DNA from: Escherichia coli
Lineage (GTDB): Bacteria > Pseudomonadota > Gammaproteobacteria > Enterobacterales > Enterobacteriaceae
Assembly (NCBI RefSeq): GCF_045037415.1
Contig: NZ_CP173438.1
Strand: one strand, 5' to 3'
Length of the DNA: 64,000 nt
Numbering within the stretch: the first letter of the stretch is position 1; the number at the start of each line of letters is the position of its first letter. The position numbers were made by a program. Below are positions 51,001 through 54,000 of this stretch, piece by piece.

Positions 51001-54000
51001 GGCCCGCAAATACCGTACAGGTATCGCTTCCCTGATGAGGTGGTGGTGTAAATCACCGAAACCGGGTCAGAGCAAAACGTGGGTTTTATTTGGTAAAACC
51101 AATCACGGCAAGCTCAGCGGCGAAATACTGTACCGGTTGGTGGGGCAAGGCAAGAAGCTGTTCCGCTGGCGGCTACCCGAAGGTAATCCCTATCTGAGGA
51201 CGGAGACCAGAAACACGTATACATCGCGCTTTACAGAAGTGGCAATGGCGTTCGCCAGCATTTAAATGGAGAGCCGGATGCGCTGAAAGGTGCACGTCCG
51301 GTTCGGGGAGGAGAGGCAGGGAAATAGTCCGACTACGCCCTGCCTCTTACTCTACTCTGGACGGGTAAGCGCTGGGCGTACCTCGCCGTTGTTCTCGACC
51401 TGTTCGCAAGAAAACCAGTGGGCTGGGCCATGTCGTTCTCGCCGGACAGCAGGCTTACCATGAAAGCACTGGAAATGGCATGGGAAACCCGTGGTAAGCC
51501 CGTCGGGGTGATGTTCCACAGCGATCAAGGCAGTCATTATACGAGCAGGCAGTTCCGGCAGTTACTGTGGAGATACCGGATCAGGCAGAGTATGAGTCGG
51601 CGTGGAAACTGCTGGGATAACAGCCCAATGGAGCGCTTCTTCAGGAGTCTGAAGAACGAATGGGTGCCGGCGACGGGCTATGTAAGCTTCAGCGATGCAG
51701 CTCACGCAATAACGGACTATATCGTTGGATATTACAGCGCACTAAGACCGCACGAATATAATGGTGGGTTACCACCAAACGAATCGGAAAATCGATACTG
51801 GAAAAAACTCTAACTCGGTGGCCAGTTTTTGTTGACCACTTCACTTATACTCGCCAGGGATATGCAATTGAAGCAATTACCGCCACGATTGACTGGATAA
51901 AAGAGAACGGTTTTTCACTCATCAAAGCCGGTGTGAATCCGGAAAATACCCTTTCAAAAAAATTACTTATCAGGATTGGCTTCAATTTTTCGAGCATCGA
52001 AGATGGGTGAGCATATTTATGTTCTGGATTAAACAAAAGGAGAATAATCTCCCGAAGGGAAAAGCCGATGAGGCCATTTCAGGCGTACTTCAACATGCAT
52101 TCGTCAGTGTCATCTGCCTTTTCCAGTAAATGGGTTGGCATTCAATTTCCAAAGTACATCACACTTTTTCTACTGAAACATATCCCTCCTATAACTACGT
52201 GTTAATATTCGCTCCGTAAATACCTTTCAACTCAACCCGAGGCTTTGATGCTGGAGAATGTAATCATCCGATAATCAGTTCCCCGACCTTTTCAGGCCGG
52301 ACTGATTATCAATGCGCCGAAATCGAATGCGGACACCGCGGTGTGTTTGCACGTTTTGCACATGATGATTAAACAGGTTCTTCAGTATGAATTTATCCCG
52401 TCAGGAACAACGTACGTTACACGTTCTCGCTAAAGGTGGACGTATTGCGCACGTCCGCGATTCTTCAGGCCGCGTCACTTCCGTTGAATGCTACAGCCGC
52501 GAAGGGCTGTTGCTGACCGACTGCACGCTCGCCGTCTTCAAAAAACTCAAAACCAAAAAACTTATCAAGTCCGTCAATGGTCAGCCCTATCGAATCAACA
52601 CTACCGGGCTGAATAACGTTCGCGCTCAGCTCGATAATCGCTAAGGAGAGTTTCGATGACAGCACACCACTTCACTTTTCAAATCACAGATGAAAGTGAT
52701 GCCAGTGATATCCGGGAAGTCGAAACCCGCGCATTTGGCTTCAGCAAAGAAGCCGATTTAACGGCCTCTTTACTTGAGGATGAAAGCGCGCGCCCTGCGT
52801 TATCGCTGCTGGCCCGACATGAAGGCAAAGCCGTCGGGCATATTTTATTTACCCGGGCAACCTTCAAAGGGGAAATGGATTCACCGCTGATGCATATCCT
52901 CGCTCCCCTGGCAGTCATACCGGAATACCAGGGGATGGGCGTGGGAGGACGGTTGATACGCACTGGCATCGAGCACCTGAGGTTGATGGGCTGCCAGACG
53001 GTTTTTGTTCTCGGCCACGCCACCTATTACCCCCGACATGGGTTCGAACCCTGTGCCGGAGACAAAGGCTATCCGGCACCTTATCCCATCCCGGAGGAGC
53101 ACAAAGCCTGCTGGATGATGCAAGCACTCACCGCTCAGCCCATGAACGTGACCGGCCACATCCAGTGCGCGCAGGCCCTGATGAAACCGGAGCACTGGCG
53201 TGAATAACAATCTTGTTGTGCCCTTTTTAATGCTTAACCCAATAACAGGAATTAACTAATGGATATTCCACGTATTTTTACCATCAGTGAAAGCGAACAC
53301 CGCATCCACAACCCGTTCACCGAAGAGAAGTACGCCACGCTGGGTCGCGTGCTGCGCATGAAACCAGAGACCCGAATTCTGGACCTCGGCAGCGGCTCGG
53401 GCGAGATGCTCTGCACCTGGGCCCGGGATCATGGCATTACGGGGACTGGAATCGACATGAGTTCGCTCTTCACCGCGCAGGCCAGACGCCGCGCGGAAGA
53501 ACTCGGCGTCAGCGAACGCGTACATTTTATTCATAATGATGCGGCGGGTTACGTCGCCAATGAAAAATGTGACGTAGCAGCCTGCGTTGGCGCGACCTGG
53601 ATTGCCGGAGGCTTTGCCGGGACAGTCGAACTGCTGGCGCAGAGCCTTAAACCGGGCGGGATCATGCTCATCGGTGAACCTTACTGGCGTCAGCTTCCGG
53701 CAACGGACGAGATAGCCCAGGCCTGTGGCGTCAGCTCGACGACCGATTTTCTGACGCTACCAGGGCTTGTCAGCGCGTTTGACGACCTCGGCTACGACGT
53801 GGTGGAAATGGTACTGGCGGACCAGGAAGGCTGGGACCGATATGAGGCCGCGAAATGGCTGACCATGCGCCGCTGGCTGGAGGCCAATCCTGACGATGAC
53901 TTCGCCGCCGAAGTCAGGGCCGAGCTAAACATCTCGCCGAAACGCCACGTAACGTACGCGCGGGAATACTTTGGCTGGGGCGTGTTCGCACTCATCGCTA

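Follow-up and report, generated by a model that had tools for sequence, protein, structure and literature searches.

The toiL-topAI-yjhQ-yjhP Operon in an Escherichia coli Genome: Very Probably the Ancestral, Undamaged Form of a Known Locus

The stretch of Escherichia coli DNA analysed here, a window of 64,000 nucleotides (NCBI RefSeq assembly GCF_045037415.1, contig NZ_CP173438.1), very probably carries an undamaged chromosomal toiL-topAI-yjhQ-yjhP operon that has kept its ancestral form. The system is already known, and the sequence-only reading that preceded our analysis had correctly recognised the published E. coli topAI-yjhQ; by analogy with K-12, the functional unit would consist of the four cistrons toiL-topAI-yjhQ-yjhP rather than of a two-gene pair. 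The DNA of topAI, yjhQ and yjhP is shared letter for letter (100 % identity) with Nissle 1917 and ST131-type E. coli, and as this published system is found unchanged in hundreds of sequenced strains, the result for the window itself is mainly housekeeping. The frameshift label that PGAP attaches to the 183-residue yjhQ is misleading, the mutation being carried by the K-12 form, and all TopAI-YjhQ experiments used K-12-type proteins that are off-consensus at invariant positions. For studies of this antibiotic-induced topoisomerase inhibitor, use of the consensus allele is advisable, with the methyltransferase partners included.

Gene Content of the Operon

The features described here all lie on the plus strand. 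Gene topAI (yjhX) occupies 52387..52644 as an ORF for 85 amino acids that opens with ATG and closes with a TAA stop at 52642–52644, and yjhQ follows at 52656..53207 as an uninterrupted ATG ORF for 183 amino acids. Exactly 11 nt (52645–52655) separate the two, and the AAGGAG Shine-Dalgarno sequence of yjhQ (52643–52648) overlaps the topAI stop codon; adjacent, co-directional and spaced in this way, the genes are arranged as a toxin–antitoxin (TA) pair would be. Compared with b4566/b4307 of K-12, where topAI-yjhQ is known to form a single operon, protein identity is 95 % for TopAI and 94 % for YjhQ, and both the gene order and the 11-nt spacer are unchanged. The neighbourhood nanCMS ... yjhR'-yjhZ'-topAI-yjhQ-yjhP-yjhY-sgcX is likewise common to both. 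From the sequence alone, an 85-residue TopAI-like gene followed 11 nt on by a GNAT gene had been proposed and the pair had been called intact; the ORFs, the gap at 52645–52655 and the Pfam matches bear out the former, while full-length family matches, uninterrupted ORFs and the ancestral C-terminus of YjhQ support the latter.

The third gene of the operon, yjhP (53259..54005), encodes a class I SAM-dependent methyltransferase of 248 amino acids that matches Pfam Methyltransf_25/31/11 and is annotated as yjhP in identical genomes. Neither TopAI nor YjhQ is represented by a model in PADLOC. For YjhP, the match there is confined to the methyltransferase domain of mad2, and we do not read it as a sign of a role in defence. 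On the 3' side of yjhP, a consensus scan places a terminator-like stem-loop with a T-rich tail at 54039..54065, a weak candidate for the end of the operon.

TopAI spans the Pfam family YjhX_toxin (PF09857) end to end (1–85 of 85, E 8e-42, 141.5 bits at a cut-off of 27) and matches NCBIfam PRK13687/NF010240 with 157 bits (cut-off 99). All residues that are invariant in YjhX proteins, namely S4, E7, Q8, L11, A15, G17, G18, R38, G40, F51, S62, P67, V78, Q81 and D83, are present in the window protein, and the family-invariant G18 is missing from K-12 TopAI. More broadly, R9, G18 and G74 of the window TopAI correspond to the invariant consensus of 80 species, whereas K-12 has H9, R18 and E74. The protein is rich in lysines (K52, K53, K55, K57, K58, K61) and is predicted to be a winged helix-turn-helix protein, a fold in line with the published DNA requirement for TopAI binding to full-length TopA; searching the PDB by TopAI sequence returned nothing meaningful (best E 0.41). 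TopAI of K-12 is a topoisomerase I inhibitor according to toxicity and rescue assays, pull-downs and in vitro experiments in which TopA was inhibited and then rescued (Yamaguchi & Inouye 2015, PMC4666372). A further study (PMC11695965) detected its association with TopoI by Co-IP/BiFC and reported hyper-negative supercoiling, with YjhQ giving a partial rescue. Carried over from the K-12 protein, inhibition of topoisomerase I and growth arrest would be expected of the window TopAI.

YjhQ matches Pfam Acetyltransf_1 (E 8e-12) and Acetyltransf_7 (E 6e-9), which, like the TopAI match, lies well outside what chance would give, and its acetyl-CoA motif Q92-G-M-G95-V-G97, which conforms to the pattern Q/R-x-x-G-x-G/A, lies in invariant alignment columns. 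The AF2 model (pLDDT 91.6) finds its nearest solved folds in E. coli YhbS (PDB 4rs2) and the Brucella GNAT 4zbg with TM values of 0.85 and 0.74, respectively, at sequence E values of 3e-10 and 2e-16 and an identity of just 26–29 %. Fold and motif thus point to a YhbS-like GNAT with predicted acetyltransferase activity. We know of no link between YhbS and TopAI. In K-12, YjhQ binds and neutralises TopAI as seen by pull-down and in vitro rescue (PMC4666372); the same function is likely for the window YjhQ by analogy with that K-12 protein, which differs in its last 10 residues.

This difference bears directly on the ancestral state of the locus. The C-terminus of the window YjhQ, ...ALMKPEHWRE, is conserved in our alignment from Enterobacterales to Bacteroides, Desulfovibrio and Methanolobus, and orthologues from at least eight genera share the YjhQ length of 183 amino acids. 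DNA and protein alignments agree that the K-12 allele lacks 2 nt of the (GC)3 tract at 53167..53172, a loss leading to a 181-residue YjhQ whose last 10 residues are unrelated to the window form and match nothing in the cross-phylum alignment. Because the C-terminus encoded in the window is the cross-phylum consensus, the alignments identify the 183-residue YjhQ as ancestral and the K-12 form as the mutant. The 3' end of yjhQ is that of the window in 742 complete E. coli genomes and that of K-12 in 1030, and PGAP tags the identical yjhQ of Nissle 1917 as 'frameshifted' because the allele used for comparison has the K-12-type tail.

Leader, toiL and Proposed Mode of Expression

Transcription in K-12 starts 171 nt 5' of the topAI ATG (10.1101/682021), a position that projects to 52216 in the window, and the sequence of the promoter region matches K-12 exactly. 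We place the probable promoter at 52200..52216, with an extended −10 element TGtTAATAT (52200–52208) and a start near G52216; the placement follows the K-12 start site because a generic sigma-70 scan 5' of topAI gave no consensus promoter on the plus strand. The pyrimidine-rich 5' end of the leader (52216..52240) is identical in sequence to the K-12 region in which rut was mapped by mutation (10.1101/682021), which makes it a putative site of Rho loading. It is followed by the uORF toiL (52248..52274, GAGG Shine-Dalgarno at 52239–52242), which encodes MLENVIIR in eight codons plus stop. Its ATG lies exactly 139 nt 5' of the topAI ATG, matching both the published distance and the published codons TTG-ATG-CTG-GAG-AAT, and 76 of the 80 orthologous loci have a uORF beginning MLEN 135–140 nt 5' of topAI.

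A repressive structure is predicted for 52245..52391, in which toiL (52248–52268) pairs with the Shine-Dalgarno sequence and start of topAI (52364–52391) and encloses two inner hairpins (MFE −57.4 kcal/mol, z = −4.17 from 200 shuffles). In a consensus fold over 75 species, the AUGCUGG:CCAGUAU helix is present in 75/75 sequences; its bases are invariant or nearly so and show no compensatory changes, which renders covariation uninformative for the pairing of toiL with the ribosome binding site (RBS), while the two inner hairpins contain eight pairs with double changes. Across genera of the Enterobacterales the leader keeps 86 % identity, and its sole difference from K-12 is C52374 at position −13 (T in K-12), where C is the cross-species majority. 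In the window this base is unpaired; in K-12 it takes part in an A-U pair, at a predicted difference of 0.4 kcal/mol. No Rfam family covers the topAI leader.

In K-12, the operon is silenced by toiL together with Rho as long as ribosomes do not stall (10.1101/682021; also PMC12121999), and drug induction as well as Rho termination inside topAI may be carried over to the window locus. Near-identity to K-12 suggests that the mRNA would start near 52216. Stalling of a ribosome in toiL by tetracycline, macrolides or other ribosome-targeting drugs would open the hairpin, upon which topAI would be translated, Rho blocked, and topAI, yjhQ and yjhP all expressed. TopAI would bind topoisomerase I on DNA, at the enzyme's N-terminal 67-kDa part, and block relaxation, with hyper-negative supercoiling and growth arrest as the expected consequence, and YjhQ, made from its own strong Shine-Dalgarno sequence, would bind TopAI and thereby relieve the inhibition. 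For the TopAI-YjhQ complex or YjhQ alone, no operator binding was found at the upstream palindromes (PMC4666372), and by analogy with K-12, control by toiL and Rho would take the place of antitoxin autoregulation.

With its uORF MLENVIIR at −139, the window leader shares the layout of the toiL/Rho attenuator of topAI described by Baniulyte & Wade (10.1101/682021; PMC12121999). The toiL authors themselves drew the comparison with the ermC/ermB, cat and cmlA leader peptides, in which a stalled uORF ribosome likewise unmasks a downstream RBS and the inducers likewise target the ribosome. Unlike these systems, toiL is followed by genes that are not known resistance genes, responds to several drug classes and couples its read-out to termination by Rho within the first gene.

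Partners of TopAI in Other Species

The census comprised 80 species with a TopAI orthologue, for which neighbours within 3.5 kb of topAI were classified by tblastn, and seven targeted context look-ups were made beside it. A YjhQ-like gene lies within this distance in 12 species (~15 %) and is absent there from the other 68, so that TopAI and YjhQ do not form the conserved pair expected of a type II TA system; a SAM methyltransferase follows topAI in ~80 % of the 80 species. The remaining partner classes were TopAI-YjhP (30 species), TopAI-MT236 (10, or 15 by clustering) and TopAI-MT295(-YjhP) (12), and none of the four classes is found after topAI in 14 species, or 12 when two weak MT236 matches from clustering are counted. 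Directly 3' of topAI, yjhP is the commonest gene in other species, and the first downstream gene usually starts 4–16 nt on. Regardless of this cargo, toiL is retained in 76/80 species. TopAI itself is 81–100 % identical at the protein level across Enterobacterales. In contrast to typical TA modules, it is rare on plasmids and phages, and one plasmid copy is solitary. YjhQ (58 %) and YjhP (74 %) are adjacent in Desulfovibrio cuneatus without TopAI; a Mor-like protein of 90 amino acids encoded 5' of this Desulfovibrio YjhQ-YjhP was considered as a cryptic TopAI analogue and rejected for lack of similarity.

TA behaviour of the window pair would be an extrapolation from the K-12 experiments (PMC4666372, PMC11695965). 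Solitary TopAI and partner-less loci are unexpected for an obligate TA pair, and since only a minority of species pair TopAI with the GNAT, a dedicated antitoxin role for YjhQ stands on less firm ground than the name implies. GNATs also occur with a small partner protein in the two-gene modules TacT/TacA, AtaT/AtaR and KacT/KacA. There, toxicity comes from the GNAT, which acetylates aminoacyl-tRNA, and a small DNA-binding protein serves as antitoxin; topAI-yjhQ has it the other way round, with the small protein as toxin and the GNAT as reported antitoxin.

Alternative Readings

Such a distribution would also fit a translation-stress sensor, an explanation we regard as possible, if on balance unlikely. 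Here, toiL-topAI, a sensor combined with a small winged-helix protein, would be the conserved unit that drives interchangeable transferase genes, encoding either a GNAT or one of three classes of SAM methyltransferase. YjhQ and YjhP would mainly be enzymes whose substrate, a small molecule or a macromolecule, is linked to the signal sensed by toiL, so that the operon would serve physiologically as an enzymatic answer to the cause of ribosome stalling on toiL, and the neutralisation of over-produced TopAI by YjhQ would be secondary or a side effect. The prevalence of varied methyltransferases over YjhQ beside TopAI, the short distance to the first downstream gene, the retention of toiL whatever the cargo together with the conserved leader, and the YjhQ-YjhP pair of D. 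cuneatus all speak in its favour. So do the solved folds nearest to YjhQ after YhbS, with AAC(2') aminoglycoside acetyltransferases and RimI among them, the speculation of the toiL authors on additional functions, and the atypical K-12 alleles behind the TA model with their three TopAI substitutions and frameshifted YjhQ tail. Against it stand the K-12 TopAI-YjhQ pull-down and the stoichiometric rescue of TopA in vitro (PMC4666372), as well as published TopAI and toiL work, in which neither a substrate of YjhQ or YjhP nor a resistance phenotype is reported. Moreover, distant YjhX genes (37–49 % identity) are also trailed at 1–12 nt by small GNATs of different subfamilies, a recurrence that argues for a real link between YjhX and acetyltransferases. 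Such a link could be catalytic: YjhQ might act as an enzymatic, type VII-like antitoxin that acetylates TopAI, with methyltransferases doing the equivalent elsewhere by methylation. The strictly conserved acetyl-CoA-binding motif and catalytic core of YjhQ, the lysine content of TopAI and the fact that all recurrent YjhX neighbours are group-transfer enzymes (GNATs or class I SAM methyltransferases) would suit this idea. We nevertheless hold it to be improbable, as rescue by PrS2-YjhQ occurred at ~1:1 with no acetyl-CoA mentioned and with a stable complex, pointing to sequestration (PMC4666372), and as K-12 YjhQ rescues even though it lacks the conserved C-terminal motif.

Two further readings concern the integrity of the pair. 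That it is decaying, with yjhQ a frameshifted pseudogene and topAI an orphan toxin left behind, might be suspected from the PGAP label on the identical Nissle 1917 gene and from the position of the locus among pseudogenes and an IS. Given that the window ORF is uninterrupted and of orthologue-like length, that its last 10 residues are conserved as far as an archaeon while the K-12 tail is unmatched, and that the 2 nt of the indel were lost by K-12, in the (GC)3 tract, we see hardly any probability in this; the cross-phylum C-terminus rules out decay as deduced from the PGAP flag. Even less credible is an origin of the upstream GNAT fragment as a piece or paralogous duplicate of yjhQ. Both sequences belong to the GNAT superfamily, yet BLASTP of the fragment against YjhQ gives no alignment even at E ≤ 100, the Pfam families differ (the C-terminus of Acetyltransf_3 versus Acetyltransf_1/7), and the fragment is orthologous to yjhZ, a separately named pseudogene of K-12. 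The sequence-only reading, which had held the fragment to be unrelated to yjhQ, was right in this respect. The intact, ancestral operon accordingly remains our preferred reading, and its upstream border is described below.

Upstream Pseudogene and Insertion Element

The fragment, yjhZ' (51846..52010), retains the C-terminal 54 codons (51846..52007) and stop codon (52008–52010) of a RimJ/RimL-type GNAT and matches only positions 91–138 of 138 of Acetyltransf_3, i.e. the last third (E 1.5e-6). It aligns with the yjhZ pseudogene of K-12, which keeps ~80 nt more on the 5' side, and is an unrelated pseudogene, cut by an IS911-like element, with no part in the topAI system. Its description as lying immediately upstream holds insofar as it is 5' of the pair, although 376 nt with the operon promoter and leader intervene before topAI. 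Likewise, the supposed second, truncated GNAT copy is indeed a truncated GNAT, but of a different subfamily and hence no copy of the GNAT in the pair.

The start of yjhZ' lies 2–3 nt beyond the exact terminal inverted repeat (51819–51843) of an IS911-like element, in agreement with the earlier statement that the fragment abuts an IS911-type end. That the fragment was left by IS911 is correct only as far as this adjacency goes: K-12 has no IS911-like/group II intron element at yjhZ' and still keeps only a yjhZ remnant, for which reason the element was not the sole cause of the pseudogene. The flanking triplets cga and ctt differ and no 3-bp target-site duplication was found for the element, suggesting an IS-associated deletion or rearrangement rather than a simple insertion.

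The element (48323..51843; IS3 family, 'ISEc52 family' in PGAP) lies outside the operon and begins with the left inverted repeat TGAAGTGG... at 48323. Its IS911-type OrfA/OrfB ORFs (48359–49149 and 51418–51813) are interrupted within OrfB by a group II intron, which contains reverse-transcriptase/maturase ORFs at 49741–51265 and is matched by Rfam Intron_gpII at 51269–51355 (64.9 bits). In identical genomes, PGAP annotates ltrA and an IS3-like transposase here.

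Results and Discussion

The operon comprises topAI (yjhX; 52387-52644), an 85-aa gene with an ATG start and a TAA stop, followed 11 nt past that stop by yjhQ (52656-53207; ATG start, 183 aa), whose Shine-Dalgarno motif AAGGAG (52643-52648) overlaps the topAI stop codon, and by yjhP (53259-54005), encoding a 248-aa class I SAM methyltransferase. TopAI matches Pfam YjhX_toxin end to end (1-85 of 85, E 8e-42) and scores 157 bits against NCBIfam PRK13687, and profile searches assigned YjhQ to the GNAT families Acetyltransf_1 and Acetyltransf_7. The sequence-only reading had described a TopAI-like gene with a GNAT gene 11 nt later, which is confirmed by the ORF listing and raw sequence, by these matches and by annotated genomes: the 1.5 kb at 51800-53300 recur at 100% identity in Nissle 1917, ST131 strains and many other complete E. 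coli genomes, where the genes are annotated as topAI, yjhQ and yjhP. Their K-12 MG1655 counterparts are b4566, b4307 and b4306, and yjhZ', yjhR', nanSMC and sgcX flank the locus in both strains. It is a real, correctly interpreted and already known chromosomal accessory operon. From the intact acetyl-CoA motif of YjhQ and its structural model (pLDDT 91.6; TM 0.85 against 4rs2) we infer a putative YhbS-type GNAT.

The yjhQ gene of Nissle 1917 (locus L001, 6857-7404), identical to that of the window, is labelled "frameshifted" by PGAP. When the window and K-12 genes are aligned, they differ in length by 2 nt at one place, a (GC)3 tract (53167-53172), with the last 10 residues altered to ...GHIQCAQALMKPEHWRE (183 aa) in the window versus ...GHIRCADPDETGALT (181 aa) in K-12. 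Aligning the C-termini across phyla ruled out a frameshifted pseudogene: orthologues in Enterobacter, Citrobacter, Salmonella, Klebsiella and Buttiauxella are likewise 183 aa long, and they share the ending ...L-x-x-P-(E/A)-H-W-R-(E/D) with full-length homologues (54-58% identity) from Bacteroides, Desulfovibrio, Sunxiuqinia and the archaeon Methanolobus. Since all of these sequences carry this motif, the window allele is the intact ancestral form, a 2-nt deletion in K-12 having removed the conserved PEHWRE tail. The PGAP flag is an artefact of comparison with a K-12-type protein, an annotation error worth passing on. The earlier claim that the pair is intact therefore holds, yjhQ being uninterrupted and having the C-terminus of its cross-phylum homologues. 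In a set of 5,426 complete E. coli genomes, about a third of them with the locus, 742 have the window-type 3' end of yjhQ (623 exact) and 1,030 the K-12 type (886 exact).

TopAI differs from window to K-12 at four residues (R9H, G18R, G74E and N77K). R9, G18 and G74 occur in all 80 orthologues of other species and N77 in 73 of them, K-12 (locus L002, pair at 5240-6054 versus 52387-53207 in the window) having H9, R18 and E74. With invariant TopAI residues changed and the YjhQ tail removed, the experimentally characterised K-12 reference proteins are atypical alleles, which is also worth passing on. As a side observation, an intact 86-aa zinc-ribbon ORF (54133-54393; Pfam Zn_ribbon_2, E 1.7e-10) stands where K-12 has the yjhY pseudogene, and is a further gene kept in the window strain and decayed in K-12.

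In K-12, over-production of TopAI arrests growth; the protein binds a 67-kDa N-terminal portion of topoisomerase I, requires DNA for binding to full-length TopA, prevents relaxation in vitro at roughly 100 nM and co-purifies with YjhQ, which restores TopA activity (PMC4666372). An independent study described a TopAI-TopoI interaction, hyper-negative supercoiling, and a lowered mortality upon YjhQ co-expression (PMC11695965). Judging from 94-95% identity and the consensus residues, the window alleles would act as those of K-12 do.

Expression in K-12 is governed by toiL, a uORF of 8 codons starting 139 nt upstream of topAI (codons TTG-ATG-CTG-GAG-AAT): in the off state a hairpin stops topAI translation and Rho terminates within nt 10-42 of topAI, while in the on state ribosomes are stalled in toiL by at least five antibiotic classes (10.1101/682021). 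The window carries a matching toiL (ATG at 52248, stop at 52272-52274, MLENVIIR) with a GAGG Shine-Dalgarno motif at 52239-52242. The published K-12 transcription start (-171; 10.1101/682021) corresponds to G52216, with an extended -10 element TGtTAATAT (52200-52208) ahead of it, and the pyrimidine-rich 5' end of the leader, the Rho loading site in K-12, has the same sequence; C52374 (T in K-12) is the sole leader difference, the window base being the cross-species majority. The fold of 52216-52400 (-57.4 kcal/mol, z = -4.17) pairs toiL (52248-52268) with 52364-52391, spanning the topAI Shine-Dalgarno motif and start codon, and this predicted pairing corresponds to the repressive hairpin of the published K-12 model (10.1101/682021).

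Over 75 distinct orthologous leaders (window 52215-52401), alignment columns are 86% identical on average. All 75 retain the AUGCUGG:CCAGUAU helix, which is essentially invariant and hence not confirmable by covariation; compensatory changes were found at eight pairs, in both inner leader hairpins. The non-coding leader keeps this average of 86% across genera as far apart as Proteus, Yersinia, Hafnia and Klebsiella, and TopAI (81-100%) is better conserved than YjhP and YjhQ (73-98% each). For an accessory locus, such conservation of leader and TopAI reflects either unusually strong constraint or recent spread. With the toiL leader included, the functional unit exceeds a two-gene pair.

Partners of TopAI were surveyed at 80 loci, one genome per species, with TopAI orthologues of 81-100% identity, and same-strand downstream genes were classed by tblastn and clustering. 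YjhP alone follows TopAI at 30 loci, a different SAM methyltransferase of 236 aa (MT236) at 10 (15 by clustering), a third class of 295 aa (MT295) at 4 and MT295 with YjhP at 8; three of the loci, from Yersinia massiliensis, Salmonella enterica subsp. diarizonae and Citrobacter braakii, encode an MT295-YjhP fusion as one 543-546-aa ORF straight after topAI (about 3766-5406 in L011, L080 and L087). Any YjhQ-like sequence was present at only 12 loci (8 full length), partial methyltransferase matches only at 2, and none of the four partner classes at 14, clustering giving two of these a weak MT236 match. In most cases the gene next to topAI begins 4-16 nt past the topAI stop, and toiL is found at 76 of the 80 loci irrespective of what follows. 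Shewanella has YjhX and then two methyltransferases, with no GNAT. Context was informative for five distant YjhX proteins (37-49% identity): two are solitary, and the other three have a small GNAT, its subfamily differing between them, 1-12 nt downstream. Few TopAI genes are carried by plasmids (26 of 72,556 records, several being mislabelled chromosomes) or phages (4 of 50,697, two being Salmonella contigs); the copy on a Salmonella IncF plasmid is solitary, and the copy on an Enterobacter megaplasmid has a methyltransferase partner.

On these genomic contexts, YjhX is recurrently coupled to a group-transfer enzyme, YjhQ not being its conserved partner, and the point worth making is that its usual neighbours are methyltransferases rather than a GNAT. 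The census is compatible with the K-12 experiments, yet weakens the claim of a canonical type II toxin-antitoxin family. That toiL-topAI would be a conserved unit driving interchangeable transferase genes, with TopAI-YjhQ no dedicated pair, strikes us as possible but rather unlikely; the toiL authors speculated that operon functions are tied to the molecule sensed by toiL (Baniulyte & Wade). Our literature search found no published account of TopAI partner variability. In the deltaproteobacterium Desulfovibrio cuneatus (L007, 3001-4452), YjhQ (58% identity) is directly followed by YjhP (74%) without YjhX, a Mor-like 90-aa protein taking its place upstream, and identities so high between phyla suggest that YjhQ-YjhP spread horizontally as a two-enzyme module.

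Two smaller matches were also seen. A 3.2-kb contig (L009) binned in a 'Collinsella sp.' MAG encodes TopAI and the first 98 YjhQ residues at 100% protein identity to the window, probably E. coli contamination. YjhP matches the PADLOC model mad2, a methylation-associated defence candidate (E 7e-17), within the methyltransferase domain only (mad2 positions 272-403 of 492), probably a generic methyltransferase similarity.

Upstream of topAI lies the GNAT remnant yjhZ' (51846-52007, stop 52008-52010; 54 residues), whose match to Pfam Acetyltransf_3, the RimJ/RimL type, is confined to the C-terminal third of the profile (positions 91-138 of 138). It begins 2-3 nt past an exact right inverted repeat (51819-51843), which bears out the reported GNAT C-terminal fragment beside an IS911 end. 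BLASTP gave no alignment with YjhQ even at E <= 100, ruling out a piece of yjhQ; the description of the fragment as unrelated to the pair's GNAT stands, whereas "second copy" is a little misleading. The remnant's orthologue in K-12 is the pseudogene yjhZ, which is ~80 nt longer, lacks the IS and has an in-frame TGA, so that the gene decayed independently of the window IS.

This IS911-type element starts at 48323. A group II intron inserted in it (RT/maturase ORFs, 49741-51265; Rfam Intron_gpII, 51269-51355) brings its length to 3,521 bp. On the left it is flanked by yjhR, a truncated helicase gene on the minus strand (47226-48371). A 3-bp target-site duplication is absent, the flanks being cga (left) and ctt (right) (48320-48325, 51841-51849), which implies that the junction would stem from an IS-associated deletion or rearrangement, or from recombination between two copies, rather than from simple insertion. 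Within the intron region (49150-51400) the RT/maturase is split into overlapping ORFs (49741-50385 and 50357-51265); otherwise identical composites elsewhere measure 3,520 nt versus 3,521 nt here, suggesting a 1-nt indel that is either a genuine frameshift or an error in sequencing. At >=80% coverage, 779 complete E. coli genomes contain the composite.
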